A stretch of 64,000 bases of DNA from Psammoneis japonica (GCA_008632985.1 QPGO01000010.1:372001-436000), one strand, 5' to 3'. Positions 4,059-52,480 are shown, numbered from the stretch's first letter. Translations and numbers: made by a program. The notes: generated from the sequence alone by a model not told the origin.

Positions 4059-7000
4059 TCACCAGTCATCTCCGAAATCGTCCATATTATCCTCCTCTGC
4101 CTTAGCTGCTTCTGCCGCGGCTGACGCCTCCTCTGCTGCTATCCTCTCAGCTTCGGCAGCAGCCTCAGCAGCCGCTTCAGCCTCCGCAGCAGCGGCTGCA
4201 GCCGCTTCCTCCTCTGCCCGAGCAGCAGCAGCTGCTGCTGCGGCAGCCTCTTGAGCGTCATCGACTGCCGTTTCTGGAGCCTTCTCCTCTTGAATTGGAA
4301 CGTCAGCTGCCGGTGGCGGCACTGGCGCAGAACGAGCCTTGATGAGTTCAATGAGATTCAGATCCAAGTCATCCTTGGCAGTAAGATAATCTTTGGCAGG
4401 CATTCCGGACGCTTTCGTTGCTTCTCGCTGAGATAAGAACATTTGCTCTACCTGAAGAGCAATGTCAACGTCTGGAAAGAGCTCGCGATTCTCCGATGGA
4501 GTCGCCAAGGACTTGGCAGCAGTTTCACTGACACCCTTGAGATCCTCCTTCCACAAGGCCACAATCTCATCGACGCGAGATGGCATGTAGGTCCGGGCGA
4601 AAAAGGCAGCCTCTGGAAGACGCTTGGTTTCGATGAGCAAATCGGCACATGCTTCCACGTTGCCCGTCAATAGGTAGGCGACAAATGCCACATTGGTCTT
4701 CCCGTCTCCCGAAGCCAGCTTGGCAAGCTTCTCCATTCCATCCATGTTCCCTGTAGCCGAGTACAAGAGCAAGAGCCCAGGAAAGTCATTGCTGGCAATG
4801 CTCGCCGACTCACACAGCTCTAAATTCGTATCCTTGAGAGCGGCATCACTCAAGCGCTTCCACTTAGCGAGTGTATCGGTCGAATCCTTGTCTTCTTCTG
4901 GCGTATCTTGCACCAACTTATGTGCCAAATCAATTTGTCCAAGCTCCAATGCTAGGTCAAACTTGTGATCCGGATCCGTCGTAACCTCCATGGCTTCTTC
5001 CTTGAATCCCTGTGATTCCAAAAACCGAGCGACACCAGTGTATGCCGACTCTGGAATGGAAGGCAACAGTTCGTTCGCAGCATCAAAGTCCCCACGCATA
5101 ATGGCAGTTTGATACTGAAGCACCGCAAGCATCACCTTGTAAGAAACGACATTGAGCGATTTGTCGATAAGGTACACCCGGTCCTCCTTGGCGAGATAGC
5201 CCAAAACCGTGTGGGCCGTGGTTCCGGCCGCCGTCGTGTCCAAGTGCACAATTGTTTGGATCTGTCCACCGACGCTATAGTTGAGGCGTCCGACATTGTT
5301 CACGTAGATGAAGCAGTCGCCAACCCACTTTCCAGAGGTGATGGTGTCCGAGATTTCGTACAACAAATCAAAGCTTCCGTCAATACCGTTCTCTGGTGAA
5401 ATCTGACCCGACGCAATGGCATTATGGGTGACATTCTCGTCAAAGGAAAGGACGTAAGCGGTATCCTCACAAGCCAAAAGTACCATATTGCCGGCGTCGG
5501 ACCAATAGACCTCTTTGGGTTCGACGTCAATCTTGCGAACAAACTCTCCACTCTCCCAGTCATAAAACAATACTCCGGCATCACCTCCCTTGACTCCCAT
5601 CATGTGTCCGCCAAAGAGCCCAGTGGCGGCCGCTGTAGCCGGTCGGATGGATTGATGTTCCTTGAAGTTCTTGAAAATCTTGATGCTCGATGTGCTTTCC
5701 CGAATAGCATAGTCACCCGTGCCAGAGCCGCTCCAAACAAAGTCCAGAGCTTGACCAAAGGCCTTGTTACGGAGAGCCTGAGCGGTGTAGATGATGAATT
5801 CTCCGTCACCACAAACGGCCACAAAGCGTCCGTTACAGTTGTGTTTGAGCATTTGGGGATACAAGTCACATGCACCAAGGTCTCGGGGAATAATGGGAAG
5901 ACGATCACCATCCGGGAGACCTTCGTCGTCTCCCCCCGATCCAGAAGCTACTCCACGTACAGAAGTGGTTTGGATGTCGTTGTTGGTGGCCCAGACAATC
6001 TTTCCTGTAGCATCCATGGACACGACGGGTTCGTCTGATCCGAGCTCGATACATACGCAACCCTCGTCAAAGCCAATGGCAAGCTTGTTCGAGTCGGGCG
6101 TGGCGGCAAGTGCCCAGGCTCGCTCCATGCCGTAGTTGAGAGTTGTTTCGGCACGGTATGTTGTACTCTGCCAAATACGAACCGTGCCATCTTCGGAAGC
6201 AGAAGCAATGATGGGTAGCTTCGGATGGAACATGACGGCACAAACGTTGTGAGAGTGCCCCTCTAAGGAATGCACGATGGACTTGGTCTGGATTGCAAAT
6301 GTGAGAAAGAGCAGATACGGGTGAGAAGAAATGCGAAACAATGTACGTAACAACTACTGAATAACTACGACGCACCTGGTAATCCCAAATTTTGACCGTC
6401 CTGTCGTCTGCACCACTCAGAATGTAAGGCTTATCACCACTGGGATAGTAATCGATGCAGTTGACTCCCCGCTCGTGTCCCTCGAGGGTGTAGTGAGGAG
6501 AGTGTGATCCCAGTCCCCATACCTTGATGCTCCTATCCAAACTAGCACTCGCAAAGGTGTTGGTGTCCTTCGGATTGAACTTGACTTGCATGACATAGTG
6601 AGCGTGTCCCTCAAACATTTGGGTACAATCAAATCCGCGGTCCCAATCCCATAGCTTGATGGTCATATCATCGGACGAAGACAGAACGTATGGGAGGGTG
6701 GGATGAACTTCGACACTACGAATGTAATCAGCGTGCGCTTCAAACTCCTTAATTTTCTCCATGGTGTTGTAATTGAACACACGCAACCGCATATCATCTG
6801 ACGCGGCCAAAAACCACTGTTTGCGTGCGAGAAACTTGGCACAACGCACCGGGAGCTCTGACAACTCAAACGACTTCACGCAGGCACCTGATTCGTAATC
6901 CCAAATCATCACGTTGCCACTGTATAGGGCAGACAGAACCCATGGCTCTGAGGGATGTAAGTCGACCGACTTGACGCGCTCCGAAGAGGCGGAGAGCTTC

Positions 7001-7208
7001 TTCTTGATGTCTAGGCGAAGTGGCTGCAAAGCGCGTAGAGGAACAACAACGTGAGAGTCAGTAGCAGGTGAGACTTAATTGCAATTCAGTAGTGACAAAC
7101 GTCACGACGACAACACAGGAACCGATCTAAACAATCATACTGCCGTATCGTGCGCATAATGAGGCGGCTTTCGCCCAGTGCACCGTTCCAGAGAGACCAA
7201 CGTACCAT
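4059..7208 (-). CDS. COPB2: Coatomer subunit beta' (beta'-COP/Sec27)
   Basis: Exons 7208-7206 (ATG only), 7023-6376 and 6287-4059; GT-AG introns 7205-7024 and 6375-6288. Protein [11 protein letters not shown]…RVKSVDLHP…WD40 repeats…[12 protein letters not shown], about 959 aa, ending in an Ala/Glu-rich acidic tail. Confidence 0.97.
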
Positions 7209-8368
7209 GGTGGATCGCTGCTGCCGCTGTTTGAGGAATGACCGTGCGCCTTCCAATGCCCGTGTAGAATTCTACGTGGTTGCAATACCGTTCCAACACT
7301 TTGGATATTTGCACGCGAGCTCGAAGTTGAGAAAGCTCGTATTCCCACAGGGAGGATGGAAGGATAGACGGACGTTCTACATACCTGCACCTACGGTATC
7401 TACCGTACCGTATCTACCCACCTGCAAGTGCAGAACAGCTGTCCGTCCTCATCTACACGTGCTGTGCCAAACCGTACAGTGCTTGTCACTCTACTCTCTA
7501 TCTCTACTCTAGCTAGAGAGTGGACTAGAGTTCTACTTATCGGTGCAACCAGTTTGCTCTAAACTCTTGTAGAACAACAAACACTGTGGCAAGAGGATGC
7601 TTTGACCGATCCGAAAGTTGCAAAAGGTCTGCATTCATGCAGCCTGCTGCAGCTGTTTCCCACTTCCTCAAAATGACGTGGCCCAGCTGGAGAGAGCCAA
7701 AGCTCTGTGACCCGCATCCTCAAACTGCTTCAAAGCAAACCAATTTTTTTGTTGCTGAGAAAAATTGTTCAAGCACTGGAGTGCAAGCAGCATGAAACTG
7801 TGCTGGATTTTTCCTCAATCCAAAGGCGGTGACTGTTTCGTGGCTCCACGGCTTCGAAGAGATGGGCTCGAAGCCTTGCTGCCTGAACAGCTTCTTGACA
7901 ATGACTCTCCTGACATGAAAGCCATTGGCAGAAATGATTGAAGGAAAGCAAGGATTGATTGTCGATTTTAGAACCTGAAGAGAAAATTGAATCAGTCGGA
8001 AGCAAAGTCATTTGAATGGCACCAAAGAGTCAATGTGGGTGGACTTTCCAATGCCATCCTCGGTTTGCGGTTTGACATGTCAAGGACTTGCAAGCCATTC
8101 ATGACATTGAGAGTTCTTAGATTTTTCTCTCTGGCACCGGCAGCTGTCTGTCAGGGGCAGGCTGCGCTTGAGACACACCCCCCACTTCCTGGCCTGAAAT
8201 TACGAGCATGCCTTTTGACTCGCATGTGGCAACACAAGGATGGTTCTCTCATTTCAACTCCCCATTGCTGCCTGCAGCACCTGTGTCAGCATGCATGGAC
8301 AGGTTGGCTGGCTGCAATGGCTTTTAGAAATGGACGTGGAGTCTTTTCCGAAGTGGTGCACCCGCACA

Positions 8369-8609
8369 TGTTGAAATTTGTCCTTCTGGTGACTGTTCCA
8401 GAGCCACCTCAGTCCTCTGGGGTCCGATCCTGAGGGTGAAACAGACAAGCTTGTTATCACAATGCTTTCCAAGAGTCAAAAAAGAACAATGGCTGCTTCC
8501 ATTGGCAGTTTCAGTGCTTCACGTGGAGCACATGAGCACTGGCGCATGAATCTTCTTCTTCGCACCATCTGGTTTTGGTGCTTGGACTTTCAACCCACCA
8601 TTTCCAACA
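8369..8609 (-). repeat. 3' LTR of the Copia element
   Basis: Alignable over its length to 13688-13926; TG…CA ends; purine-rich CAGCAGGAGTG immediately upstream on the minus strand (PPT-like). Confidence 0.93.
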
Positions 8610-11600
8610 CACTCCTGCTGACCAATGACAAGATTCTCACTGTTTCCAAATTTAACCATCTTGGGCACTTGGATGTTCATGATGGCCTGATGATCAACAA
8701 TGAGCTTCTCACCAACCACAGGTTTGGTCATGTGATCTGCCATCATCTTGTCCATTGGGCAGAACTCAATCTCGAGTTCTCCTTGCTTGATGAGGTCAGT
8801 GATGTAAAAATGCTTGATGTGAAAATGTCTGGTGCATTTGCCTGAGCTGGCCTTTCCATTTTGTTCTAATTTCATGCAAATTTAGTTGTCACGATGTGTG
8901 ATGTTGTGCTTGACTTCAAAACCTTGAGCTTCAATGAAACGCTTGGTCCAAAGGACCTTCACCAAAACATCATCTCCTGCAACAATCTCCACTTCCACAG
9001 AACTCCTGGTGTTGATCATCTGCTTTGCACTGACAGATGCAATGATGCCTTTTCCAAGGGTAGAACCTGTGTGACTTTTGCAGTCCGGATGGACTGCAAA
9101 TGCGGCATCCGTGTGCCACTTGATGACAACTTTGTCTCCAGCCAACATGACTGTGACATCAAGCTGGGTTGTCTTGAGGAGAAATTCATGAGCCTCACCA
9201 GCTTTGACCAATCTGATTCATTTGGATCCTTTGCTCTGGTGGAGAGAAAAACAATTCCAGGCTGAATGTCCTGCCTGGCTCTCTTGCAAACAAACATGCT
9301 CTTCATCACAAAAGTGCAAAATGCTCGAGCATGCCTGAGATCCAACTTCTTGGCTGTCTCGTCCACCTTGTTGAGCTTCTTGCTCTGTGGGCAATCCATG
9401 TCACCCAACAATTCTTCTGGGAACTCCTTGAAGAATTCCTTGGCCATTCCTTGCACACAGAGCACCATGTCAACTTGCAGTGCTCCTGGAATGGAGTGAT
9501 CCAGAGTCATGGCTGAACAGTCATGCCTCTTTCCACATGTTGCTTTGACCTTTCCGATCTCATCTGCGTGAGTTTTGTCAAGCCAAATCTTAAATTCATT
9601 GTTGACCTTGCTGTCAACATGGCTGAACTTCAAATCATCTGCATGCCATGTCGCCGTGTGTTGTTTTCCATTCATGATGCGATTGGTGACACATGGATCA
9701 CAAGGGTTAATTTCAAATCTGATTCCTTCAATGTCTCTGCGAAACTTCTTGCAACAAAAAATGGAAGACACCAACATTCCACAGAGTGCCTTCAGCATTT
9801 TGACACATTTGCCTTTGCACACAATGCAGTCCTGGCAAGTGTCTGGATCTAATTCCAGCAACATGTCCACCATCCTTCCATGGATCTTCACAACAATCTT
9901 TTCATCCTTGACCTCAATGTCCATTTGCACAAATGTGCTCAAGATGTCTGCTGTCATGGCATCTCGGCCTTGCTTGGCATCAATCACTCCTGTGATGAGA
10001 ACAGATTCAGTGGATGCTGTTGGGCTGGCGGTTTCATCTCAGTCCATGTGCTCTCATTGCATGCTTCTGTTTGCACACAACCTGGACTTGACTCATCCAT
10101 CTCTTTTCTCTGTGAGAAACATGAGGCTCTCCATGGCTTCCTCTCCAGAGGAGTCATGTCTTTGATGTGAATGGGTTTGAAAACCACTCCATCATGGATC
10201 TGCTTCAGCTCCGACACCGCCAACTTGTGGCCTTCTTCTCCAAACTTCTGGAGTCCTCGTGCCAAGCTGCAAGTCTGAGTGAATTGATGTGCTTCTTCAA
10301 TGGCAGAAATTGTGCTGACCTTCTTGTTCCACTGGCACATTGTCATGGCCATGATTCTGGCCGTCTCCAAGCTGCACTCTTCTTCTTGTGAGTGAGCTTG
10401 AGTCTGCAGATGTCATTGGCAGTCTCCTAATCTTGCCAGAGGTTTCAGAGTCCTTCCTCCCCTGGATGTGGCAACAGGCTCTTTTTGAACACTTTCTTCA
10501 GTTTCACTCTGCTCCTCTCCAGATTTGTCATCAGATTCCAGCTCTTGCATTTTGTCAATGATCTCTTGCACTTTTGGAGAGTGTTCTTTCTCTTGTTCCA
10601 GTCTCTGTTGTTCATCAATGTGGTCAATCATGTCATCAATTTCTTGTGAGATTCCACTGCCGTCTGATGGTTGAGAACCAACTTCGTCATTGTCTCCAAG
10701 ATCATGCTCATCATTGGAGGCTTCTTCTTGATTTTCGTCTTGTTTTCCGCAGCTGGCTTCTTCATCCAATTCTTGATCTTGGATTGTTTCTTGCAGCTCT
10801 TCTTGACTGACTCTGTCACAGTCTCCCCAGTCCAGCTCTTCTTCCTTGTTGTCTTCTGTTTCAATGTCTTCCTCTGGATCACAGTCTTCATCTTCAAATT
10901 GATCTTCATTGCAATCCACTCCTGCAAGCCAAGAAGCACTGTCGTGCAAAACAGCTCCAGCGCAGTTCTGAATCTTGAGACCATTTGGCATCTTGTTCAT
11001 TTCAGCCAAACAATGAACCTGCTTGATGATGGTGGGAGCAATGGGCACAGGGGTGACCTTGCAATGGGTGATCTCCTTGCCTGTTTGCAAGTGCAGCAAC
11101 TGATGTCCAATCTGGTTGCTGTTGGTGGGGCACAAATGAGTGCAATCCAAGGTCCGTGACTCTTGGGTGTTCTTGGGGTCTGGGTTGTCATGAGCCTGCA
11201 CACAAGTGCCGAATGTGATCTTGCAGCTCTTGTCACAGTCTAGACTCTTTTGATGGAGAATCATTCTTGGACTGTAATGTTTGGAAATGCCATGCTTGGC
11301 TGCAAATGTTGAGCTTCTCAGCAGCTTTGGTGACCATGAGTTTTGGCAGATGCTTGAATGGCAGCTGATGACAGGCTGCCCTGGTGTGTTCTTGAACAAC
11401 TTGCTTGTTCCTTTTGGCTTCTGGGGCATGCTCCTGAGCGCCAACGCAGTTCATCTTAAGATCAAGCTTGTCTTCCAGTGCACTCCCAATGGGCCTGCAT
11501 TTGTTGTCACAACGAATGCATGTGACCTTCAAACCAGCCTTGTTGTGGACTCGCGGCACATCTTCCAGAGCTTCTTGATGAGTTGGCTGGGTCACATCCT

Positions 11601-13687
11601 TGAGCGGTTGTGCAGTGCGACAAAAAAATGTTTTGTGACACTGTGGTGAGGAATGGCAATCCATTCACCTTGAGTCCATCCAGGCAAAGAGTGACCTTGT
11701 GCTGCACTGCAATGAGCTCCGTGGGGATCTCTGCACCATCTTCTGCAACTGGCTCTGGCTTCTGCCTTGTGACCTTGCCTTTCAGACTTCCAATGTCTGG
11801 TCCAAAGATCTTCTTGGCCAAATCTACATCCTCCATTGTCATGGAATTGTTCTTGATGCTGTTCATGTGAATGATGGCCTTCAGATCGTTCACAGTTGGG
11901 TTTCCTGATGCACGCAACAATTCCCCAGCTCTCTTGGCTTTCTCAAACTGTTGTGGAGTGTAGAACTTCTTGTTCTCTTCCACACTCTCCACAAATTGGA
12001 GTTGAGCTCCAGTGTCTTCAATCTTGGGCTTGTAAACATGCAGCCCTTTTCCATCCTCCTCGAACCTGATTTTCTTGTTGGGCAGATGAACGGTGAATGC
12101 ATTGTCTTGTGAGGAATCACTTGTGATCCTGTGCTTCTTCTTCATGTTGGAGCAAGCAAAAATGTTGGTGATTGCATCTGGTTTGAACCAAGTCTTGCCA
12201 AACCCTGGTGCCATGGCCTTGTGAGTTGTGACCAGGACTGCGCCATTGATGTGCAATTTCATGACTTCATCCAATGGACAGATGTCTCTGACAAGCTTCT
12301 CGTTGCAGAAGATGGTGGTTGTAGACTGGTTGTCTGATGAAATCCAGTCTCTCATGCTGCCAGATTGATCCTGGCAGAGAGATGCATCGATGTGTGTGCC
12401 AGCCCATCCTGAAACAGCAGATTTTGTTCTAGCGGATTCTTTGGCAAAAGAGTTGGCTGGCTGCACTGGCATCGTCACTTGCTTGAGTGTTGCTTGCTTC
12501 TTGCTTAAAACTTTGGCCTTGTTGATGGCCCATTCTGCTTGAGGTTTTCCTGGCCTTTCCCAGCACTTGTTGGAATGATGTCCTGCTTTGCCACAGCAAT
12601 GACACTTGCCTTCTAACTGAGCAAAGGACAGGGTGATTTCTTGGTTTTCTTCTTGTTTCTTGGAATCAGAGTTGATGTTTTGGTTGTTCCAATCAAAAGT
12701 GTGGTTGCACAACACCATGTTGGCTTCCGCAACAGACTTGGGACATTGGCCATTCTTGAGTGACTGCTGAGTGTTCAATCCTGTCAGAGTTGACCCACAC
12801 TTGCGCTGGTCTGCTTTCTCCAAGCACGTGCAACCCATCAATTGACTGAATGCCTCATCTTGACACTTCTTGATGGAATCTGAATTGTGCTCATTGCAAT
12901 CTGGCATGCCTTCCACTGCCTTGGTGAGGACAATCGGCCCTCTAATGTGAAGTTTCATGATGTCTCTTGCAACCCTGGTGAATCTCTTGGCACGACCTTG
13001 TTTCCAGCGCAGCTCTCATCAAATCTGAGATGACAGCCATGTCGTGCCTGTGCTCTTGACAGTTCAACACATGCTCCTCAATGGCCTTGAGCAACTCAAT
13101 GGGGTTGTTTTCAATTTTGGTTTGGAGCTCGGTTCTTGCTTGAATCTTGTTTTTCATGGCCTTGAAGCATCTCTCCCAGAGCAAGCACAAGCCTTTGTGA
13201 GGTTGTTCTCACAAGTCTGAGTCCTGTTGATGTGAGCATCAAATTCAGTCTTGAGCTCAATTTTGTGCCATTTGTTTGATGGCACGTCCGCCTTGTCATC
13301 TCCAGCCAAGCTGACCTGCAAAGTCGGCTTCTTGGAACTCATGCCACATGGAGTGCAAGTGTTGAGTGCAGCTGCAATGTCGTTTCCAAACTCACAAGTC
13401 TTTTCAATGCAGTTGATGATGAACTCAGCTGCAATCTGAAAATTAGATGCTTGCTTGGCACTCCCAACACAGCAGACACAATCATTGATGCCCTTGTGGC
13501 TTTGCTTGCCACTCTTGTTGCCCCTTCCTGAGGGTCCTCTTCCTTGGCTTTCATCGCCAGTTCTGCCTCTGCCTCTTCCACTCATGATGAAATGGCAAAG
13601 CAGCAAAACATCTCACACAACATGAGGGTGACTCTTTTCTTTCTTGCTTTCTTTTCGCAGCTCTCAGCTGGATGCTTCTCTTTCAGC

Positions 13688-13926
13688 TGTTGAAATTTGT
13701 CCTTCTGGCGACTGTTCCAGAGCCACCTCAGTCCTCCAAGGTCTCATCCTGAGGGTGAAACAGACAAGCTTCTTGTCACAATGCTTTCTAAGAGTTGGAA
13801 GAGAACAATGACTGCTTCCATCGGCAGTTTTGGTGCTTCACGTGGAGCACATGAGGGCTGACGCAAGCATCTTCTTCACAGCCATCTAATTTTGGTGCTT
13901 GGTCTTTTAATCCACCATTTCCAACA
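13688..13926 (-). repeat. 5' LTR of the Copia element
   Basis: Direct repeat of 8369-8609, followed by TSD GCACA. Confidence 0.93.
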
Positions 13927-14374
13927 GCACAGCACACAGCTCTGCCGGTGCAAAAAATTTGAAGCCCGTGTCGATCATGGACAATGACTCACTAAAACCA
14001 TCATCCCCACGAAAGATACAGAGATCAGATTGATTCTTACCAGTACAAAGCATGCTCACCGTGCCGGTGGCCAGCGGATAGCAGGTGCGGTCTTCAGGCA
14101 TTTTTCCGGTCATACCGGTACAAGCAAGAAGAGTGCCGTAAAAAAAGTGGGGGTGTCGTACGAATTTTTGGCGACAATAGGTGTGTGCGTGGTGGACGTA
14201 CCGGTAAGTACTGTAAGACGGCCGTGCGTTAGTTACTACGAGTACAACTACTTGAGAATCTGTCATAATACTCATAGCATACCGTACTGTACTCGCTCGT
14301 AGGATGTCGTTATTACGAAAAGAAGCCTACCGTAGAATGTCTATGACCTTGAGAATGGATTTTAGATTTGTGCC

Positions 14375-14796
14375 TGCCGTGCATGATGCACAAAAATTTA
14401 ACCCCGAGACATTTCCGTTGAGAAAACGTTACGCATAAACCAATACTAATAAAAGGTTACAAGAGGTCATCCAATCTTGTGGAGGAGGTCATAGGTCATT
14501 TTCGAAATTTTGAAAATGATTACCACGAGAAAAACTATGCCCCTCATTTTTTTCCCATTCCCATCGTCCTCCAAACTCGACCATTTCATGCCAATTGGTC
14601 AACACATCCTTTGGCATTTGTGTCGTCGTTATTGAGCAACATATTATTCAAGGAATTGATACCGAATAGTGGTTATCGAAGCGTAACTAACAAGAAACCT
14701 GCAAAGGGGAAGTCGTCGTCTCGTCCTGTGCTGAAGGTGAACAGGAAAAACTCATTGGACTAGTTGAAGGAAACGCTGTTTAGCACTTGTCCTAAG
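14375..14796 (+). promoter_or_regulatory. Upstream region of mucin gene A, co-duplicated with the region upstream of gene B
   Basis: Collinear similarity with 52051-52480 (AACCCCGAGAC…ATTTCCGTTGA, AAGAGGTCATC…AATCTTGTGGA, CGTCCTGTGCTGAAGGTGA, AGGAAAAACTCATTG). Promoter function is inferred from position only. Confidence 0.6.
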
Positions 14797-17700
14797 ATGA
14801 GGCTTTTAAGGGTGAGCTTGTGCCTTGCTTTGCTGCGCACAGGTTTGAGTCAGACTGATGAACCAAGTGACGTGCCTTCAACGATGCCCAGTGTTTTCCC
14901 TTCTGGCATGCCATCGGGAGCGCCAAGTGATGTTCCCTCGACAATGCCGAGCACCATGCCAAGCGCAGTGCCTTCGTCGACTCCGTCGGATGTTCCGAGT
15001 GGCATACCTTCGTCGACTCCATCAATGATGCCTTCCACCTTACCAAGCAGTGCTCCGTCGGGCATGCCGAGCAGCTCTCCTTCAGTGGTCCCCTCGACAA
15101 GCCCATCCGACATTCCCAGTGGCATGCCGAGTAAAACGCCTAGCGCCATGCCTTCAGGAGTACCGAGTGCTGTCCCTTCTGATCTTCCGTCCGTATTTCC
15201 GAGCAGCATGCCAAGCTCCATGCCTTCGTCAAATCCATCCTTGGCGCCATCGAGTCAGCCTTCGGAAGTACCGAGTGCGGCACCCAGTGATGTCCCCTCG
15301 ACTAGTCCATCAGCTCGACCAAGTGATGTGCCCTCTATGCAACCATCTACGGTGCCTTCGACAAGCCCGTCAGCTGTACCCAGTTCGGCACCCAGTGATG
15401 TCCCGTCGGCTAGTCCATCATCCCAGCCAAGTGACAACCCTTCTGCGCAACCGTCTACGGCGCCGTCAAAAAGCCCATCAGCTGTCCCCAGTTCAACACC
15501 CAGTGATATCCCGTCGGCTAGTCCATCGGCTCCGCCCAGTGATGTCCCTTCTGCGCAACCATCTATGGCTCCCTCAACAAGCCCGTCAGCTGTCCCCAGT
15601 TTGGCACCCAGTGACATGCCGTCGACCAGTCCTTCAGCCCAACCAAGTGATGTGCCTTCTGCGCAACCGTCTGCGGTGCCATCGACAAACCCGTCAGAAG
15701 TCCCAAGTTCGGCACCCAGTGACATGCCGTCGACTAGTCCATCAGCCCAACCAAGTGATGTGCCTTCTGCGCAACCGTCTGCGGTGCCATCGACAAGCCC
15801 GTCAGAAGTCCCCAGTTCGGCACCCAGTGAAATCCCGTCGGCAAGTCCATCAGCTCAACCAAGTGATGAACCGTCTGCGCAACCCTCTGCGGTGCCTTCA
15901 ACAAGCCCATCAGCTGTCCCCAGTTCGGCACCCAGTGACGTGCCGTCGACTAGTCCATCGGGTCAACCCAGTGATGTCCCTTCTTCGCAACCATCTACGG
16001 TGCCTTCAGCAAGCCCGTCAGAAGTTCCCAGTTCGGCACCCAGTGTTGTACCGTCGGCCAGTCCATCTACCCAACCAAGTGATACGCCTTCGGCACAACC
16101 GTCTACGGTGCCTTCAGCAAGCCCGTCAGAAGCTCCCAGTTCGGCACCCAGTAATGTGCCGTCGGCCAGTCCATCAACAAAACCAAGTGATACGCCTTCT
16201 GCGCAACCGTCTACGGTGCCGTCAACAAGCCCATCAGCTGTCCCCAGTTCGGCACCCAGTGACATCCCGTCGGCTAGTCCATCGGGTCAACCCAGTGATG
16301 CCCCTTCTGCGCAACCGTCTACGGCGCCTTCAACAAGCCCGTCAGCTGTCCCCAGTTCGGCACCCAGTGACATGCCGTCGACTAGTCCATCAGCCCAACC
16401 AAGTGATGCGCCTTCGGCACAACCGTCTACGGTGCCATCAACAAGCCCGTCAGAAGTTCCCAGTTCGGCACCCAGTGATGTGCCGTCGGCTAGTCCATCA
16501 TCCCAGCCAAGTGACACCCCTTCTGCGCAACCGTCTACGGTGCCGTCAAAAAGCCCATCAGCTGTCCCCAGTTCAGCACCCAGTGATATCCCGTCGACTA
16601 GTCCATCGGCTCAGCCCAGTGATGTCCCTTCTGCGCAACCATCTACGGTGCCTTCAACAAGCCCGTCAGAAGTTCCCAGTTCGGCACCCAGTGATATACC
16701 GTCGGCCAGTCCATCTACCCAACCAAGTGATACGCCTTCGGCACAACCGTCTACGGTGCCTTCAGCAAGCCCGTCAGAAGTTCCCAGTTCGGCACCCAGT
16801 AATGTGCCGTCGGCCAGTCCATCAACAAAACCAAGTGATACGCCTTCTGCGCAACCGTCTACGGTGCCGTCAACAAGCCCATCAGCTGTCCCCAGTTCGG
16901 CACCCAGTGACATCCCGTCGGCTAGTCCATCGGGTCAACCCAGTGATGCCCCTTCTGCGCAACCGTCTACGGCGCCTTCAACAAGCCCGTCAGCTGTCCC
17001 CAGTTCGGCACCCAGTGACATGCCGTCGACTAGTCCATCAGCCCAACCAAGTGATGCGCCTTCGGCACAACCGTCTACGGTGCCTTCAACAAGCCCGTCA
17101 GAAGTTCCCAGTTCGGCACCCAGTGATGTGCCGTCGGCTAGTCCATCATCCCAGCCAAGTGACACCCCTTCTGCGCAACCATCTACGGTGCCGTCAAAAA
17201 GCCCATCAGCTATCCCCAGTTCAGCACCCAGTGATATCCCGTCGGCTAGTCCGTCGGCTCAGCCCAGTGATGTCCCTTCTGCGCAACCGTCTATGGCTCC
17301 TTCAACAAGCCCGTCAGCTGTCCCCAGTTCGGCACCAAGTAACATGCCGTCGACCAGTCCTTCAGCCCAACCAAGTGATGTGCCTTCTGCGCAACCGTCT
17401 GCGGTGCCATCAACAAGCCCGTCAGAAGTCCCCAGTTCGGCACCCAGTGACATGCCGTCGACTAGTCCATCAGCCCAACCAAGTGATGCGCCTTCGGCAC
17501 AACCGTCTACGGTGCCTTCAACAAGCCCTTCAGAATTTCCCAGTTCGGCCCCCAGTGATATACCGTCGGCTAGTCCATCATCCCAGCCAAGTGACACCCC
17601 TTCTGCGCAACCGTCTACGGTGCCATCGACAAGCCCGTCAGAAGTCCCCAGTTCGGCACCCAGTGACATCCCGTCGGCAAGTCCATCAGCTCAACCAAGT

Positions 17701-20700
17701 GATACGCCTTCTGCGCAACCGTCTGCGGTGCCTTCAATAAGCCCATCAGCTGTCCCCAGCTCGGCACCCAGTGATATACCGTCGGCTAGTCCATCCGCTG
17801 AACCCAGTAGCGTGCCATCCTCGACACCTTCAGCCGTACCTTCAACAAGCCCGTCAGCAGTCCCGAGTTCTTCACCAAGTGATATCCCGTCGATTAGCCC
17901 ATCAGCTGAACCCAGTAGCGTGCCTTCCTCGACACCTTCAACGGTGCCTTCAACGAGCCCGTCAGCGGTCCCGACTTCTGCACCAAGTAACGTTCCGTCG
18001 ACCAGTCCATCAGCCGAACCAAGCGACACCCCTTCTGCGCAACCGTCTGCGGTGCCATCAACAAGCCCGTCAGCTGTCCCGAGTTCTTCACCAAGTGGTA
18101 TTCCGTCGAATAGTCCATCGGCTAAACCCAGTAACGTGCCATCCTCAACGCCTTCAACGGTGCCTTCAACAAGGCCATCAGCTCCCCCAAGTTCGGCACC
18201 CAGCGAGTCTCCTTCGACTAGTCCATCCGCACAACCGTCTACGGCGCCTTCAACAGGCCCATCAGCTGTCCCAAGTTCGGAACCCACTAGTATCCCATCA
18301 ACTAGTCCGTCAGCGGAACCGAGTAGCGTGCCATCCTCGACACCCTCAATGATGCCTTCTTCAAGCCCATCCGCTCCCCCAAGTTTGGCACCCAGTGAGG
18401 CTCCTTCGACTAGTCCATCCGCACAACCGTCTACGGCGCCTTCTATAGACCCATCAGCTGTCCCAAGTTCGGCCCCCACTAGTATCCCATCAACTAGTCC
18501 CTCAGCTGAACCGAGTAGCGTGCCATCCTCGACACCCTCAATGGTGCCTTCAATAAACCCATCAGCCGCCCCAAGTTCGGCACCCAGTGAGGCGCCGTCG
18601 AATAGTCCATCAGAGGGACCGAGTAGCCAGTTGTCCTCGACACCTTCGACGGCACCTTCGAGAAGCCCATCAATTGTCCCAAGTTTGCCACCCAGTGAGG
18701 GACCATCGACTAGTCCATCCACTCAACCAAGTGATTGGCCTTCTTTGCGACCGTCTTCGGTGCCTTCAACAAGCCCATCTACGGACCTTAGTTCGGCACC
18801 CAGCACAATCCCGTCGGCTAGTCCGTCAGCTGGACCGAGTAGCATGCCATCCTCGGCACCTTCAGTGGTACCTTCGACAAGCCCATCAGCAGCCCCAAGT
18901 TCGGCTCCCAGCCATGTGATGACGGCGATGCCATCTGATGTACCCAGCACAAAACCAAGCAACGAGCCGACAGACCAGTCAAGCGCTGTTCCGAGTGGAT
19001 CTCCCAGTAACACACCTAGTGCGTCACCATCTGTGTCCAGTGCCGTACCGTCTAAATCCCCTTCAGCGGTTCCAAGCACAACACCGTCTGAAGAAGGCAG
19101 TTCATCGCCATCCGGAACACCGTCCAATGTACCGTCTACATCGGCGCCACCATCTGGCTTACCGAGCGCTGTACCATCATTGGCCCCTTCCTCAAGCAAT
19201 GAACCGTCTGTGACACCGATCTTTGCTCCCTCATCAGCTCCTAGCAATGCACCATCGTCGCAACCATCGGCTGTACCATCAGACGCCCCTTCAGCGGTTC
19301 CAAGCGCAACGCCAACCGGTGTAGACAGCGCAGCGCCATCAACGGCTCCTAGCGATGCACCATCGTCGAAACCGTCGGCTGTGTCTAGTGCGGTACCATC
19401 GGACGCCCCTTCAGTGGTTCCAAGCGTAACGCCAACTGGAGGAGACAGTGCAGCGCCATCACGGTCTCCCAGTAGTACACCATCGTCAAAACCGTCAGCT
19501 GTGCCTATTGTGGTACCGTCAGATGCCCCTTCATCGGTTCCAAGTGTAACGCCAACTGGAGGAGACAGTGCAGCGCCATCAACGGCTCCTAGCGATGCAC
19601 CATCATCGAAAACATCGGCTGTACCATCAGACGCCCCTTCAGCGGCTCCAAGCGTAGCGCCAACCGAAGTAGACAGCGCAGCACCATCAGCGGCTCCTAG
19701 CAATGCACCATCGTCCAAACCATCGGCTTTTCCATCAGACGCCCCTTCTGAGGTTCCAAGCGGAACACCATCCGGAGTAGACAGCGCAGCGCCATCAACG
19801 GCTCCTAGCAATGTACCATCGTCGCAACCATCGGCTGTACCATCAGACGCCCCTTCCGCGGTTCCAAGCGTAACGCCAACTGGAGGAGACAGTGCAGCGC
19901 CATCAAGGTCTCCCAGCAGTGCACCATCGTCGAAACCGTCGGCTGTGCCTAGTGCGGCACCATCAGACGCCCCTTCAGCAGCTCCAAGCGAAACGCCAAC
20001 TGGAGGAGACAGCGCAGCGCCATCAAGGTCTCCCAGCAGTGCACCATCGTCAAAACCATCGGCTGTGTCTAGTACGGTACCATCAGACGCCCCTTCAGCG
20101 GTTCCTAGCGTAACGCCAACTGGAGGAGACAGTGCAGCGCCATCAAGGTCTCCCAGCAGTGCACCATCGTCGAAACCATCGGCTTTGCCTAGTGCGGTAC
20201 CATCAGATGCCCCTTCAACGGTTCCAAGCTATAAACCGTCTGAAGAAGGCAGTTCAGTGCCATCGGGGACACCGTCCAATGTGCCGTCCGCAGTACCAAC
20301 ACTAGCTCCTTCTTTGGCACCAAGCAATTCACCGTCTGCATCGGTGCCACCATCTAGCTTACCGAGCGCAGTGCCGTCCTTGGCTCCTTCATCGAGCAAT
20401 GAACCGTCCATGGCACCGTTTTTCGCCCCCTCATCGGCTCCTAGCAATACACCATCGTCGAAACCGTCGACTGTGCCTAGTGCAGCACCATCAGACGCCC
20501 CTTCAGCGGCTCCAAGCGTATCGCCAACTGGAGGAGACAGTGCAGCGCCATCAACGGCTCCTAGCGACGCACCATCGGCGGTGCCTAATGCGGCGCCATC
20601 AGACGCCCCTTCAGCGACTCCAAGCGTAACGCCAACTGGAGGAGACAGTGCAGCGCCATCAAGGTCTCCTAGCAACTCACCATCGTCGAAACCGTCCGCG

Positions 20701-22638
20701 GTGCATAGTGCGGGACCATCAGATGCCCCTTCAGCGGTTCCAAGCTACAAACCGTCTGAAGAAGACAGTTCAGTGCCATCGGGGACACCGTCCAATGTGC
20801 CGTCCACAGTACCATCATTAGCTCCTTCTTTGGCACCAAGCATTTCACCGTCTACATCGGCACCACCATCTAGCTTACCAAGCACAGTACCATCACTGGC
20901 CCCTTCGTCGAGCAACGAACCTTCCATGGCACCGTTCTTCGCGCCTTCATCGGCTCCTAGCAATGCACCATCGTCAAAACCGTCGGCTGTGCCTAGTGCA
21001 GCACCATCAGACGCCCCTTCAGCGGTCCCAAGCGTGTCGCCAACGGGAGGAGACAGTGCAGCGCCAAGCATCGAGCCGACAGGAAAGCCAAGCGGTATTC
21101 CCACTGGATCTCCTAGTAACACACCTAGCGTGACGCCGTCGTCCTCGCCGTCGGGTGTGTTTGCCGTACCTTCTAGAATCCCAAGCAGTGTACCATCAGT
21201 TTCGCCGTCGGCAACTCCAAGTCGTCTACCAAGTGCAGTACCTTCAGAAAAGCCTTCCTTTGCTCCATCTACGTCGCCCTCCGTTCCCACTTTCGAGCCC
21301 CCACCGCCTGACCCAACGACGTTCATTGAACTGGTTCCTTCCTCAGAAAACCTTACGCCAGCTGTGGTAGAGGAAGGCAAGCCCATGGTGATGAGATACT
21401 TTGTGTCCAACACGGGAGATCGTAGACTTATAAATGTTCGAGTACGAGAGACTTCCAATGCTCCCGTCTTTTATGAGAGCGGCGATTCGAATAATAATAA
21501 CCGACTCGATGTAAATGAGACGTGGACCTACCGTGTCGAAAAGGTGGCTAAACCCGGCGATAACACCGTCAATTTGAGAGCCAGAGGCAGGGCAAGGAGG
21601 ACAAACTGGAGAGCAACGATATCCGAGGATTTCTTTGGTGTCGCGTCGGCTGTTAACATCGACGTTACAGCAAACAATGGTAATGGCTTGACAATCGCAC
21701 CAGGGGAGACAGTTGTGTTTGATTACACTGTCACGAACGGAGGCAACGTTCCCCTCTCCAATGTTCAAGTGTATGATAGTACGCTCAATAAATTTCTGAC
21801 GCTGGCAGGAGGAGACACAAATAATGACGGAAAGCTTGACCTTGACGAGGTTTGGCGATACGCAGAAACCGGTACTGCAGGCACTGGTAGGTATGAAACC
21901 ACCGCTACCGTTACAGCCGAGTACATGGAGAACGGCTTGGATCTTGATGCTGACGATTCGGACAGGACATCGTATAGCAATGTGGCCGTAGGTTGCAGTG
22001 TAAGATTCTGGAAGAAGAACACTGACCAGTGGGACCCGTACAATCCAAACGAGTTGTTCAGGAACGTGGTTGGCATCAAGGCCTATGGAAGGAAATCACT
22101 GCAAAAGGTGTTGACACAAGGAGGCACTACCAGGCGTGGTCTCGGGAGGCAGACAGTGGCTGCTCTTTTGAATGTGGAGAAAGGCAATTACCCATTAGAG
22201 AAGAATGAGATAATTGATGCCTTTGTTGACGCGTTCAGCAGCCGAAACGAGCAAAACTATGCTTCACTGAGAGACACCTTAAAGGCTTTCAACAACAATG
22301 GAGAATGCCCGTTGGATCCCGATCCGCCGCCGCCACGTCCTACTCCTCGGCCTGGTCCCCGTCCGACTCCTCGGCCCGGTCCCCCACCTCGTCCCCGACG
22401 TCCTCCCCGCCCGTCATCCCGACCTCGGGGAAATGGCAATTTGTCCTGGAGGAGACGACTGCAAGAGACCTTGCCGGACGACCGAGTCCTTGAACCCGGT
22501 CGCCCTGGGAGAAGCAACGGTAAAGGAGGCAAAGGTGCAACAAGGGACGCCTTGACGGATGGCACGGGTACTGCTGCACGAGGTGGGCAACGTAAGCTTC
22601 GACGACCTTCACGAAGATTCCGCGACAAAAGGGGATAA
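14797..22638 (+). CDS. Giant secreted Pro/Ser/Thr-rich mucin-like adhesin A (signal peptide, PSxx stalk, two DUF11/DUF7507-like Ig repeats, GCx(3)FWK…CPL domain, Pro/Arg-rich tail)
   Basis: Single uninterrupted ORF from ATG 14797 ([19 protein letters not shown], signal-peptide-like) to TAA 22636-22638. More than 2100 aa of PSxx tetrapeptides; [18 protein letters not shown]…GDTNNDGKLDLDEVWRY motifs. Confidence 0.88.
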   Translation: MRLLRVSLCLALLRTGLSQTDEPSDVPSTMPSVFPSGMPSGAPSDVPSTMPSTMPSAVPSSTPSDVPSGIPSSTPSMMPSTLPSSAPSGMPSSSPSVVPSTSPSDIPSGMPSKTPSAMPSGVPSAVPSDLPSVFPSSMPSSMPSSNPSLAPSSQPSEVPSAAPSDVPSTSPSARPSDVPSMQPSTVPSTSPSAVPSSAPSDVPSASPSSQPSDNPSAQPSTAPSKSPSAVPSSTPSDIPSASPSAPPSDVPSAQPSMAPSTSPSAVPSLAPSDMPSTSPSAQPSDVPSAQPSAVPSTNPSEVPSSAPSDMPSTSPSAQPSDVPSAQPSAVPSTSPSEVPSSAPSEIPSASPSAQPSDEPSAQPSAVPSTSPSAVPSSAPSDVPSTSPSGQPSDVPSSQPSTVPSASPSEVPSSAPSVVPSASPSTQPSDTPSAQPSTVPSASPSEAPSSAPSNVPSASPSTKPSDTPSAQPSTVPSTSPSAVPSSAPSDIPSASPSGQPSDAPSAQPSTAPSTSPSAVPSSAPSDMPSTSPSAQPSDAPSAQPSTVPSTSPSEVPSSAPSDVPSASPSSQPSDTPSAQPSTVPSKSPSAVPSSAPSDIPSTSPSAQPSDVPSAQPSTVPSTSPSEVPSSAPSDIPSASPSTQPSDTPSAQPSTVPSASPSEVPSSAPSNVPSASPSTKPSDTPSAQPSTVPSTSPSAVPSSAPSDIPSASPSGQPSDAPSAQPSTAPSTSPSAVPSSAPSDMPSTSPSAQPSDAPSAQPSTVPSTSPSEVPSSAPSDVPSASPSSQPSDTPSAQPSTVPSKSPSAIPSSAPSDIPSASPSAQPSDVPSAQPSMAPSTSPSAVPSSAPSNMPSTSPSAQPSDVPSAQPSAVPSTSPSEVPSSAPSDMPSTSPSAQPSDAPSAQPSTVPSTSPSEFPSSAPSDIPSASPSSQPSDTPSAQPSTVPSTSPSEVPSSAPSDIPSASPSAQPSDTPSAQPSAVPSISPSAVPSSAPSDIPSASPSAEPSSVPSSTPSAVPSTSPSAVPSSSPSDIPSISPSAEPSSVPSSTPSTVPSTSPSAVPTSAPSNVPSTSPSAEPSDTPSAQPSAVPSTSPSAVPSSSPSGIPSNSPSAKPSNVPSSTPSTVPSTRPSAPPSSAPSESPSTSPSAQPSTAPSTGPSAVPSSEPTSIPSTSPSAEPSSVPSSTPSMMPSSSPSAPPSLAPSEAPSTSPSAQPSTAPSIDPSAVPSSAPTSIPSTSPSAEPSSVPSSTPSMVPSINPSAAPSSAPSEAPSNSPSEGPSSQLSSTPSTAPSRSPSIVPSLPPSEGPSTSPSTQPSDWPSLRPSSVPSTSPSTDLSSAPSTIPSASPSAGPSSMPSSAPSVVPSTSPSAAPSSAPSHVMTAMPSDVPSTKPSNEPTDQSSAVPSGSPSNTPSASPSVSSAVPSKSPSAVPSTTPSEEGSSSPSGTPSNVPSTSAPPSGLPSAVPSLAPSSSNEPSVTPIFAPSSAPSNAPSSQPSAVPSDAPSAVPSATPTGVDSAAPSTAPSDAPSSKPSAVSSAVPSDAPSVVPSVTPTGGDSAAPSRSPSSTPSSKPSAVPIVVPSDAPSSVPSVTPTGGDSAAPSTAPSDAPSSKTSAVPSDAPSAAPSVAPTEVDSAAPSAAPSNAPSSKPSAFPSDAPSEVPSGTPSGVDSAAPSTAPSNVPSSQPSAVPSDAPSAVPSVTPTGGDSAAPSRSPSSAPSSKPSAVPSAAPSDAPSAAPSETPTGGDSAAPSRSPSSAPSSKPSAVSSTVPSDAPSAVPSVTPTGGDSAAPSRSPSSAPSSKPSALPSAVPSDAPSTVPSYKPSEEGSSVPSGTPSNVPSAVPTLAPSLAPSNSPSASVPPSSLPSAVPSLAPSSSNEPSMAPFFAPSSAPSNTPSSKPSTVPSAAPSDAPSAAPSVSPTGGDSAAPSTAPSDAPSAVPNAAPSDAPSATPSVTPTGGDSAAPSRSPSNSPSSKPSAVHSAGPSDAPSAVPSYKPSEEDSSVPSGTPSNVPSTVPSLAPSLAPSISPSTSAPPSSLPSTVPSLAPSSSNEPSMAPFFAPSSAPSNAPSSKPSAVPSAAPSDAPSAVPSVSPTGGDSAAPSIEPTGKPSGIPTGSPSNTPSVTPSSSPSGVFAVPSRIPSSVPSVSPSATPSRLPSAVPSEKPSFAPSTSPSVPTFEPPPPDPTTFIELVPSSENLTPAVVEEGKPMVMRYFVSNTGDRRLINVRVRETSNAPVFYESGDSNNNNRLDVNETWTYRVEKVAKPGDNTVNLRARGRARRTNWRATISEDFFGVASAVNIDVTANNGNGLTIAPGETVVFDYTVTNGGNVPLSNVQVYDSTLNKFLTLAGGDTNNDGKLDLDEVWRYAETGTAGTGRYETTATVTAEYMENGLDLDADDSDRTSYSNVAVGCSVRFWKKNTDQWDPYNPNELFRNVVGIKAYGRKSLQKVLTQGGTTRRGLGRQTVAALLNVEKGNYPLEKNEIIDAFVDAFSSRNEQNYASLRDTLKAFNNNGECPLDPDPPPPRPTPRPGPRPTPRPGPPPRPRRPPRPSSRPRGNGNLSWRRRLQETLPDDRVLEPGRPGRSNGKGGKGATRDALTDGTGTAARGGQRKLRRPSRRFRDKRG
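14863..21290 (+). repeat. Coding minisatellite: 12-bp PSxx unit, 108-bp (36-aa) higher-order unit, 648-bp block duplication
   Basis: GAAGTTCCCAGTTCGGCACCCAGT…CCATCTACCCAACC recurs at 16021 and 16669 (648 = 6x108). The distal part switches to [12 protein letters not shown] units. Confidence 0.9.
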
Positions 22639-23172: not shown

Positions 23173-23612
23173 CTCAACGCATTCTTCCTCTGATGTTGGG
23201 AAAAATCAACGCATCCAACGCTTCTACCGTAAATGTTCATTGATTCATATTTGTATGTTCATTTTCTCATCGTGGCCCAGCAATTCGCAATTGTGGCCCA
23301 GCAATTCGCAATTGTGGCCCACTCTCAACGCATTCTTCTTAATTGTTGGGCAACAATTCAACGCATCCAACGCATCCAACGCTTTTACTGTAACTACATA
23401 TGCTCATTGATTAATGTTTGTATGTTCATTTTCTCATCGTGGCCCAGCAATTCGCAACTGTGGCCCACTCTCAGCGCACTCTTCTCAGTTGTTGGGCAAC
23501 AATTCAACACGCAGCCAACGCAGCCAACGCTTTTGCTGTGGCTGTGCTCATTGGTTGATGTTTGCATGTTCATTTTCTCATTGTGGCCCAGCAATTCTCA
23601 ATCGCGGCCCAG
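23173..23612. repeat. Three-copy ~146-bp tandem repeat straddling the edge of a TpA-depleted domain
   Basis: Copies start at about 23173, 23322 and 23468 (CTCAACGCATTCTTC…GTTGGG…ATGTTCATTTTCTCATCGTGGCCCAGCAATT). Confidence 0.9.
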
Positions 23613-23629
23613 TCTCTGCTCTCAGAGCT

Positions 23630-24365
23630 CTTGTTCCTGTGAACTCCGGACCGCTTGGAAGTTGGGCAGCAGCACAGCGACGGCAGCAGACGCACCGCCC
23701 AATGACAGAAAAACAGAGTTGGAAAAAAGCGGCTTCGTTTGGGATGTTTTCAAAAATCTGTGGGAGAAACAGTGTGAGAATCTGTTGCTGCACATTGCAG
23801 TTCATGGAGACAGCAAGTGTCGCGACTTGTTGTGCTTCGATTCGTTTCTTTTCTTGTCACAATGATCTGAGTGTCTTTTCATTTTTCTGCGCTTTGCTGG
23901 CAGCGTCAGTTCCCAGTGTGGATGAGACAGGTCTTGGGCCATGGGTGTTATGACAGAGGCAGGAGAAGGACACCATGCCTTCTGAGAGACGTCAAAAGCC
24001 AGACGACGTTGGATGTGTTTGGGGTGTTTCCGACTGCCTTTGGAGTGAAAAATTCCAACAGCTGTGTCAGCACCGCGAGACTCATGGAGACAGCAAGTGT
24101 GGCCATTTGTTGCACTTTGGCTGCTCTGATTTGGTTGTCTAATGTTCTGCTCTGTGCACCTCGTTTTTCTGGCATTGCAGCGTTGGTTCCCACCAGAACG
24201 GTTCTTGGGTCATGGGCAAATGCACAAAGGCAAAACAAGGACGGCATGTCAGCGGAACAATGTCAAAAGCTGGAGGACATCAGGTTTGTTTGGGACATTC
24301 TTGACTGCTCTTGGAACGAGAACTGCCAATGGCTGCGCCAGTGCCGCCAGGCTCATGGATGCAGC
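23630..24365 (+). pseudogene. Helicase-associated (HA, PF03457-like) repeat protein pseudogene
   Basis: Three repeats of VP…LGxWxxxQR…LExxGFVWD…W…L…HGD, with same-phase introns at 23813-23903, 24093-24180 and from 24364. In-frame TGA (probably from CGA) and a frameshift are present. Confidence 0.85.
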
Positions 24366-27174: not shown

Positions 27175-27445
27175 TTTGTTTTGGCAGAAAGTTGTTGGAA
27201 GGTTCGGCTGAGGTGATGTTTTGGCCCAGCACTGCTTGATGGCATCCAATTTCCTTGCATGTTGTCTCAGACTGTTCTGTGGGTCCAACCTTGTTGTTGA
27301 CTTGTCATGTGCAACCTGGTTTGAACAAAGCACACTTGGATGCATCATTTGTTTTGGCAGGAAGTTTTTGGAAGGTCGCCAAGGTGATGTCTTGCCTGGT
27401 CAAACAACGGGGTCCAATGTCCTCCTTGCATGTTGTCTCAGGTGC
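27175..27445. repeat. Diverged tandem duplication, period ~173 bp
   Basis: GTTTTTGGCAGAAAGTTGTTGGAAGGT (~27177) vs GTTTTGGCAGGAAGTTTTTGGAAGGT (27351); CCTTGCATGTTGTCTCAG at ~27253 and ~27424. Confidence 0.65.
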
Positions 27446-52050: not shown

Positions 52051-52480
52051 GCCGTGCAAATGCTCGCTCATCGATTTACTAACCCCGAGACGATTTCCGT
52101 TGAAAAATAGATGTTTATGAACACAACATAGCGCCCTGATGGAGGTTTAAAGAGGTCATCAGCAATCTTGTGGAAGAGGTCATTATCGAAAACAACGAAA
52201 ATGTTGAGCACAAAGAAATAAGCCCCTCATCTTTTCCCCATCACCTTCGTCCTCAGAACTGGATCCATTCTTACCAAATTGGTCCATACATCATTTGGCC
52301 TTGTGTTGTGGTTATTGAGGAACCACACTAATCAAGAAACTGATATAGAATACTCGTCGCCGAACTGTAATACTCAAGAGACTTGAAAAGGGAAAGTCGT
52401 TGTCCCGTCCTGTGCTGAAGGTGATCAGGAAAAACTCATTGTATTAGTTGAAGGAAACGCTGTTTGGCGATAGTCCTAAA
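52051..52480 (+). promoter_or_regulatory. Upstream region of mucin gene B (paralogous to 14375-14796)
   Basis: Collinear shared blocks with the gene A upstream region. Confidence 0.6.

Follow-up and report, generated by a model that had tools for sequence, protein, structure and literature searches.

Probable TpA-directed hypermutation and CpG decay of a copia-type retrotransposon after its insertion in the diatom Psammoneis japonica

Several systems are known which load mobile DNA with clustered transitions. In Neurospora and other ascomycetes, repeat-induced point mutation (RIP) kills transposons by dense, context-specific transitions that are sharply bounded yet leak to some extent into the flanks; it is triggered by sequence duplication and makes TpA from CpA. 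Retroelements are also hypermutated by ADAR (A>G) and APOBEC (G>A) enzymes, at the RNA or complementary DNA (cDNA) stage, on one strand and before integration, leaving the flanking host DNA untouched. The closest described system is that of the chlorarachniophyte Bigelowiella natans, in which de novo mutations in the integrated DNA of nucleocytoplasmic large DNA viruses (NCLDV) and virophages are restricted to TpA: of 231 mutations in two regions, 230 were A>G or T>C changes, each of them at TpA, and an ADAT2-like DNA adenine deaminase has been proposed (Mettrop et al., bioRxiv 10.64898/2026.01.13.699255). Here, we analyze a 64,000-nucleotide stretch of the diatom Psammoneis japonica (GCA_008632985.1 QPGO01000010.1:372001-436000), hereafter the window, whose numbering is used throughout. 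It contains a copia-type long terminal repeat (LTR) retrotransposon which, together with 0.8 kb of adjoining DNA, has been almost emptied of TpA. The explanation we consider best, with a joint probability of about 0.72, is that TpA hypermutation and CpG decay acted on this tract after insertion, that the two LTRs differ since these two processes and ordinary mutation struck each of them independently, and that three conspicuous triplets in the LTRs most likely arose by GG>AA.

This footprint is reminiscent of B. natans in that A:T>G:C changes restricted to TpA give TpG or CpA depending on the strand, and in being local, sharply delimited and borne by foreign or mobile DNA, with a long-term footprint poor in TpA and rich in CpA plus TpG. 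The two cases differ in other respects. In B. natans, a chlorarachniophyte, single-copy viral inserts were seen to mutate de novo during mutation accumulation in laboratory lines, whereas the present data consist of a footprint alone, borne by LTR retrotransposons of a diatom and by 0.8 kb of flanking DNA. The erasure is far deeper here, TA standing at 0.07 of expectation against a Rho of 0.45 in the B. natans NCLDV region, and it is accompanied by CpG loss. The accessible main text of Mettrop et al. mentions neither diatoms nor an adjacent-base or trinucleotide context, and literature searches, which included diatom transposon papers in the portions available, retrieved no description of TpA hypermutation in diatoms and only the Bigelowiella preprint. 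In the literature searched, TpA-specific chromosomal hypermutation has been shown in one preprint and one chlorarachniophyte. A near-saturated footprint on diatom retrotransposons suggests a genome defence common to distant algal lineages, with a chemistry opposite to that of fungal RIP.

The tract and the element that it encloses comprise the following features.

7571-13926: whole TA-erased tract, 6.36 kb, sharply bounded
7571-8368: TA-erased flank, downstream of the element's 3' LTR, 798 bp; 4 TA against 52.1 expected, 20 CG against 47.6 expected
8364-8368: left target-site duplication (TSD), GCACA, read directly from the sequence
8369-8609, minus strand: left LTR (the 3' LTR in element orientation), 241 bp, TGTTG...CAACA; 1 TA against 16.3 expected
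8675-13585, minus strand: gag-pol polyprotein relic, collinear by tblastn with residues 1-1622 of the protein P0068, with four frame changes
13688-13926, minus strand: right LTR (the 5' LTR in element orientation), 239 bp; 3 TA against 16.6 expected
13927-13931: right TSD, GCACA, read directly from the sequence

The ratio of observed to expected TA is 0.98 over 7000-7570, 0.08 over 7571-8368 and 0.07 in the element, and it is back at 0.98 over 13927-14400. Where TpA falls to 0.07, CpA and TpG are raised to 1.7 of expectation. On the left, the final dense TA lies at 7570, and on the right the first one is found at 13993, the erasure ending within 67 bp of the outer edge of the 5' LTR.

The direction of the change could be read from the coding relic, to which 17 intact homologues were aligned by tblastn, a residue being taken as ancestral when at least 80% of at least 10 homologues agreed (571 columns). 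Only 1 of 31 conserved Tyr residues is kept; 18 have become Cys (TGY), 9 His (CAY) and 3 another residue. Conserved Arg is kept in 21 of 40 columns, and 14 of the 19 losses are CGN>CAN or CGN>TGN. For the majority of the remaining residue types, 75-95% of columns still show the ancestral residue, and for five, including Ala, Ile and Val, 68-74% do. When the consensus threshold was set at 70% (706 columns, 190 changed), the inferred changes were 40 TA>TG, 19 TA>CA, 27 CG>CA and 13 CG>TG, along with 28 other A:T>G:C, 27 other G:C>A:T and 82 transversions; since the homologues are only 31-62% identical, these last three classes, like the background rates of 3-9%, include real lineage divergence.

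An independent polarised data set was provided by another relic in the window:

43559-46818, plus strand: second copia relic, unrelated to the first, within the 30-51 kb tract

Here, none of 31 conserved Tyr residues is kept (15 Cys, 9 His) and only three Arg codons survive. In two columns, Tyr has been replaced by Arg (CGY), which suggests that both strands of one TpA were struck. Two-step columns are also present in the first relic (His CAC>TGC twice, Gln CAG>TGG and Trp TGG>CAG); all such columns are compatible with repeated rounds, C>T having created a new TA that was then converted, or a single TpA having been struck on its two strands. When both strands and both relics were pooled, polarised A>G amounted to 121 of 230 at TpA, compared to 39 of 420 at ApA, 22 of 378 at GpA and 14 of 426 at CpA. 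The fates of the Tyr codons and the second relic thus identify the process as TpA>TpG/CpA on both strands, with CpG decay. A TpA-specific A:T>G:C hypermutation, turning TA to TG or CA according to the strand hit, would account for the removal of about 93% of the expected TAs.

The initial annotation had argued, from differences between the LTRs, that chromosomal DNA was mutated after insertion and not RNA before reverse transcription. This holds, and on broader grounds. If ADAR-like A-to-I editing had acted on the RNA of the element, the copy would have arrived already mutated. The T preceding the changed A is indeed ADAR-like, ADARs preferring a 5' U (as stated in the accessible part of 10.64898/2026.01.13.699255), and TG on the sense strand outnumbers CA in the first relic (44 TG, 24 CA; n=68) as in the second (40 TG, 16 CA; n=56). 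Yet 24 of 68 and 16 of 56 conversions concern the other strand, outcomes in symmetric R-TA-Y Tyr contexts are 5 TG to 7 CA, and 27 of 31 Tyr codons are destroyed. The LTRs differ from each other, and the flank, single-copy over 7800-8368 and never reverse-transcribed, is as thoroughly erased as the element. Unlike in ADAR or APOBEC editing, both strands and the flank are hit. Since a flank that was never copied into cDNA is erased as deeply as the element, the change occurred in chromosomal DNA; together with the two-strand outcomes and the LTR differences, this rules out pre-integration RNA editing as the sole cause, and we regard it as extremely improbable overall. The flank and the two-strand outcomes prove action on DNA more cleanly than the LTR differences do.

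The single-copy state of 7800-8368 was established from one 8.3-kb contig of depth 57, which enters the LTR by 36 bases (run X1, as for all contig comparisons below). Between this contig and the window, 5 differences occur in about 600 bp (7800-8404), compared to a single one over 417 bp on the right, where the flank is normal, and the window has TG where the contig has TA (8109) or CG (8318, 8357). This suggests that decay continued after the split of two haplotypes or strains, and the TA/TG difference at 8109 hints at a recent change. CpG is less depleted in the flank (observed/expected 0.42) than in the element (0.22), and the losses of TpA and CpG are hence separable. The erased flank may have its origin in read-through transcription or in chromatin that spread, or it may be an older relic. 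In the last case, 7571-8368 would have been erased before the copia element inserted at its edge, and nothing would have spread. The unequal CpG depletion, which could denote a different history, and the lack of any homology or function found for the flank are in keeping with this possibility. It however requires an insertion exactly at the right edge of the relic, as TA density is normal from 13993, and the erasure is equally deep in flank and element (0.08 and 0.07). We consider such an older relic possible, although not the favoured account of the flank.

Whether duplication attracts the process, as it does in RIP, can be judged from another tract edge:

23476-23619, plus strand: copy 3, which is mutated, of a tandem repeat of ~150 bp (the 23.4-kb repeat), with one polarised GTAAC>GTGGC

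In this repeat (23173-23625), the TAs of copies 1 and 2 are preserved and those of copy 3 are all gone, the edge of the next tract falling inside the repeat, between 23421 and 23476. With two copies spared and the third mutated, position and not duplication decides which DNA is mutated. The 108-bp tandem arrays (15.1-21 kb and 53-63 kb; 95 copies) likewise keep TA at 0.43-0.75 of expectation. The footprint is thus similar to RIP in its outcome, dense context-specific transitions on transposons, and distinct from it in two respects: TpA is destroyed (0.07) and CpA and TpG are raised, with a direction given by the Tyr codons; and the process spares tandem arrays as well as copies 1 and 2 of the repeat, while it strikes a flank whose 7800-8368 part is single-copy. 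As to the 108-bp repeat itself (15100-21300 and 52800-63500), it is coding-like, with 58% G+C and a strong C-over-G skew, and its two arrays resemble each other at a level of about 77% across 4.5 kb (14399-18911 versus 52080-56631).

Enzymatic deamination of DNA adenine, aimed at the silenced chromatin of mobile elements, is what we infer from this pattern. A more specific proposal, which we put forward tentatively and at somewhat less than even odds, is that diatoms possess a TpA-specific adenine-deaminating DNA mutator, perhaps ADAT2/TadA-like, a form of "reverse RIP". It would be guided by chromatin or transcription, act on either strand and target silenced retrotransposons regardless of copy number, spreading about 0.8 kb into unique DNA downstream of the 3' LTR and stopping at the edge of the 5' LTR. 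A separate cytosine-directed process would produce the CpG loss and the CC>TT changes.

The preferences of the process on either side of its target were also investigated. A transcription-strand bias was considered and rejected, as the sense excess of TG vanishes in the symmetric contexts (5:7). Along the first copia relic, TG and CA outcomes form 24 runs for 32.0 +/- 3.7 expected (P 0.022), and along the second 20 runs for 23.8 expected (P 0.13, not significant). The element retains 25 TAs. Four of them sit in Tyr codons that survived, each reading TACA, and at least three others are new, products of G>A after T (Asp>Asn, Gly>Arg) or of C>T (Gln>stop); one new TA, at 12943, is confirmed by five family contigs. 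When tracts were pooled (8369-13926, 24001-26000, 27001-28000 and 30201-51000), leftover TAs were concentrated in YTAR, TTAA being at 0.53 of its normal density, CTAA/TTAG at 0.30, and ATAT and GTAC at 0. A strand-specific rule based on the 3' neighbour (TAT>TAC>TAG>>TAA), drawn from these leftover TAs, was rejected: polarised conversion, with 25 of 50 at TAA, 48 of 91 at TAT, 43 of 69 at TAC and 5 of 20 at TAG, contradicts it, and at 39 converted Tyr codons its log-likelihood was -28.5 compared to -26.0 for a constant bias. TAA shows no resistance in the polarised rates, and a 3'-neighbour preference of the mutator is thus not supported as an explanation of the YTAR enrichment.

Judging from its sequence, the element is a full-length, dead LTR retrotransposon of the Ty1/copia type from a diatom; it measures 5,558 bp, lies on the minus strand and is bordered by a 5-bp TSD. 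P0068 is a diatom copia protein of 1,624 residues, of which residues 1-1622 map onto 13585 down to 8675. The reverse transcriptase open reading frame (ORF) matches diatom proteins carrying PF07727 (RVT_2) with an E-value of 1e-96 and 58% identity, the named sources of homologues being Nitzschia, Attheya, Epithemia and Cylindrotheca; homologous polyproteins are about 1,600 amino acids long and collinear with the element. Against the RVT_2 profile, the same ORF scored 13.5 bits for a cut-off of 31.6, intact relatives themselves reaching only 34-44 bits. A Pfam search with the stop-to-stop ORFs of the element gave no match at E 0.001, and one with 12 ORFs from other TA-erased tracts a single faint match to an integrase SH3 domain. 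In P0068, an integrase SH3-like domain (residues 814-867; E 0.039, below cut-off) precedes RVT_2 (1142-1372), and the gag part shows a CX2CX4HX4C knuckle, zf-CCHC_4 reaching only E 0.14. The element thus resembles the CoDi lineages of Ty1/copia, which are specific to diatoms (Maumus et al., 2009; PMC2806351), as a diatom copia-type LTR element whose homologues carry RVT_2. Phaeodactylum LTR elements carry CpG methylation, and the accessible part of the same paper makes no mention of hypermutation or dinucleotides (PMC2806351). The family comprises multiple copies: the summed word depth reaches 1,000-2,600 across the element, compared to 57 on its flanks, and other copies differ from it at 452 transition and 96 transversion places. 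The states of family contigs were read at 40 of 552 variable places, a set that lies outside the three LTR triplets. Apart from these, the copia homologues P0043, P0115, P0065 and P0111 contain 0-0.7% Tyr compared to a median of 3.7%, with raised Cys and His; they have the appearance of translated copies that underwent a comparable TA erasure elsewhere.

In the second process proposed here, CpG would decay to TpG or CpA, as expected for methylated transposons, and an excess of tandem CC>TT (equivalently GG>AA) changes would accompany this decay. In the two copia relics, GG>AA was seen at 5 of 139 and CC>TT at 4 of 95 sites, that is 9 of 234 for about 2.3 expected (Poisson P ~0.0006; this P, and the doublet expectations of ~2.3 here and ~1.6 below, were computed by hand from single-site counts). 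When a CpG was converted beside a fixed G or C (CGG/CCG), the neighbour had changed as well in 4 of 16 cases. Tandem CC>TT substitutions are the classical fingerprint of ultraviolet (UV) light. The present changes are similar in their CC>TT/GG>AA doublet excess and different in that single C>T changes have no dipyrimidine preference: outside CpG, these are found at 19 of 274 TpC, 18 of 281 CpC, 19 of 210 ApC and 14 of 294 GpC. UV thus finds no support as the general cause.

The LTR pair itself was then compared in detail. As initially annotated, the direct repeat 8369-8609/13688-13926 is present, each of the sites quoted from it is in place, and the TSD GCACA is intact on both outer sides. The alignment has 86.7% identity over 241 columns, with 32 differing columns: 22 transitions, 8 transversions (30 substitutions in all) and one 2-bp gap. 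TA faces TG or CA at four sites (8456, TTATC/TTGTC; 8470, TCCAAG/TCTAAG; 8571; 8591, TTCAA/TTTAA), TG faces CA at three sites that account for six substitutions (8418-19, 8477-78, 8512-13), and CG faces TG at two (8390, 8503). The differences had been described as dominated by these classes; 12 of the 30 substitutions do fall in them, which makes "dominated" generous, and the classes of single sites are not above chance. The triplets are as follows, all from the LTR alignment.

8418-8420 versus 13737-13739, plus strand: triple transition TGG/CAA; ancestor TAA or CGG
8477-8479 versus 13796-13798, plus strand: mirror-image triple transition CAA/TGG, with a further A/G at 8482
8570-8572 versus 13887-13889, plus strand: GG/AA doublet, TGG/TAA

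Chance was modelled by placing 22 transitions randomly on the left LTR in 20,000 rounds. TA-versus-TG/CA sites are at the level of chance (4 seen, 4.1 expected; P 0.62), and CG-versus-TG/CA sites number 2 for 4.7 expected. Sites with TG facing CA, in contrast, are in excess (3 seen, 0.4 expected; P 0.004), as are adjacent transition pairs (6 seen, 1.9 expected; P 0.007) and runs of three transitions (2 seen, 0.16 expected; P 0.018). CA and TG stand at 1.3-1.7 times expectation in the LTRs, and because of this saturation nearly half of all possible transitions appear TA- or CG-related. As TG/CA arises from TA by A>G or from CG by C>T, on either strand, the LTR pair cannot give direction. Taken alone, it shows a real clustering and not a TA-specific spectrum, and differences between LTRs in such CA/TG-saturated DNA should not be polarised by eye, TG/CA being also a product of CpG.

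The possibility that the LTRs belong to different subfamilies, through recombination or gene conversion, and that their differences were inherited is consistent with a divergence of 13%, eight transversions and a messy alignment patch at 8537-8564, as well as with the many diverged copies of the family. We regard it as very unlikely. The intact 5-bp TSD speaks against recombination between elements, and the right-LTR transversions at 13745, 13772 and 13903 (3 of the 30 substitutions being checkable in this way) are private: 8-10 family contigs all match the left LTR at these places, so that the right-LTR variants are not subfamily markers. At 13757, both LTRs carry TG and six family contigs carry TA.

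Two of the triplets, those at 8418 and 8570, had been taken as evidence that TAA was changed to TGG, the adjacent A being hit as well, by a processive enzyme or in a WA context, as was also reported for the 23.4-kb repeat. The three LTR sites fit this proposal, and so do the excess runs of adjacent transitions in the LTRs, one GTAAC>GTGGC and one TAA>CAG in the 23.4-kb repeat, and the doubled rate of A>G at ApA (39 of 420, 9.3%) relative to CpA plus GpA (36 of 804, 4.5%). The reduced number of TG/CA runs in the first relic fits an action that is locally one-stranded, although the runs test in the second relic is not significant. The conversions of known polarity in the relics do not follow it. 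None of the 8 strictly polarised TAA>TG conversions in the two relics gave TGG, the A on their 3' side being still A in seven cases and C in one. On the opposite strand, TA>CA conversions that follow a synonymous T/C position are preceded by T in 11 cases and by C in 3, and in the first relic L(TTA)>S(TCA) occurred four times and L>P(CCA) never. The excess of adjacent double A>G for which the initial annotation had called was absent from the two relics: with both bases fixed, AA>GG was found at 1 of 159 sites (~1.1 expected) and TT>CC at 0 of 84, together 1 of 243 for ~1.6 expected. In bulk, over 29 kb of tracts, TGG is no more enriched than TGA.

The 23.4-kb repeat does contain the reported TAA>TGG, as one GTAAC>GTGGC in copy 3 polarised by copies 1 and 2; its polarised TAA sites gave TGG, CAG and TGA, one each. 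Over all polarised TAA>TG conversions, 1 in 12 is tandem (0 of 8 in the relics, 1 of 2 in the repeat, 0 of 1 for the flank polymorphism and 0 of 1 for LTR site 13757, counted once), which is no more than a background of 4-9% would yield. K>R and N>S, along with K>E and N>D, count among the most frequent genuine exchanges in proteins, and the ApA excess may simply come from K>R and N>S; the roughly 2-fold rate leaves only a weak hint of a WA context. That the TpA mutator also converts the neighbouring A, and that the LTR triplets record it, is therefore unlikely; the TAA>TGG reading is unsupported and probably mis-polarised, and neither processivity nor a WA motif should be deduced from the LTR triplets.

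From the sequence, the triplets are equally parsimonious if the ancestor had GG: CGG would give TGG in one LTR and CAA in the other, or TGG would give TAA. Doublet rates alone make a GG/AA difference about nine times likelier to be GG>AA (about 9:1), and, once a prior that leans somewhat to a TA origin of discordant TG/CA is included, a CGG ancestor is favoured by about 2-3:1 at the two TGG/CAA sites. Most likely, the GG/AA doublets of the LTRs run from CGG or TGG to CAA or TAA and belong to the CpG-decay process, not to the TpA mutator.

Besides the lineage divergence contained in the background rates and the older-relic account of the flank, four points weigh against the combination of TpA hypermutation, CpG decay and GG>AA triplets that we favour. 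The enzyme, its targeting signal and its timing would all be read back from the footprint. The polarity of the three LTR triplets is transferred from rates measured in coding relics, a scan of metagenome contigs for outgroup LTRs with two degenerate LTR patterns having given 0 matches. C>T outside CpG has no dipyrimidine preference that could account for the CC>TT excess. Finally, 2 of 3 TAA sites in the 23.4-kb repeat had their second A changed, one of them as an AA>GG doublet.

Two further observations concern the surroundings and interior of the tracts. An intact WD40 gene (4059-7074, minus strand), which from its translation looks like coatomer beta-prime, has normal TA and CG and begins some 500 bp away from the edge of the 7571-13926 tract. 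Inside the 30-51 kb tract, at 42107-42479, a 187-bp tandem duplication is 96% identical between its copies, which differ by six substitutions and one gap, including CA versus TA, CA versus CG and CG versus TG.

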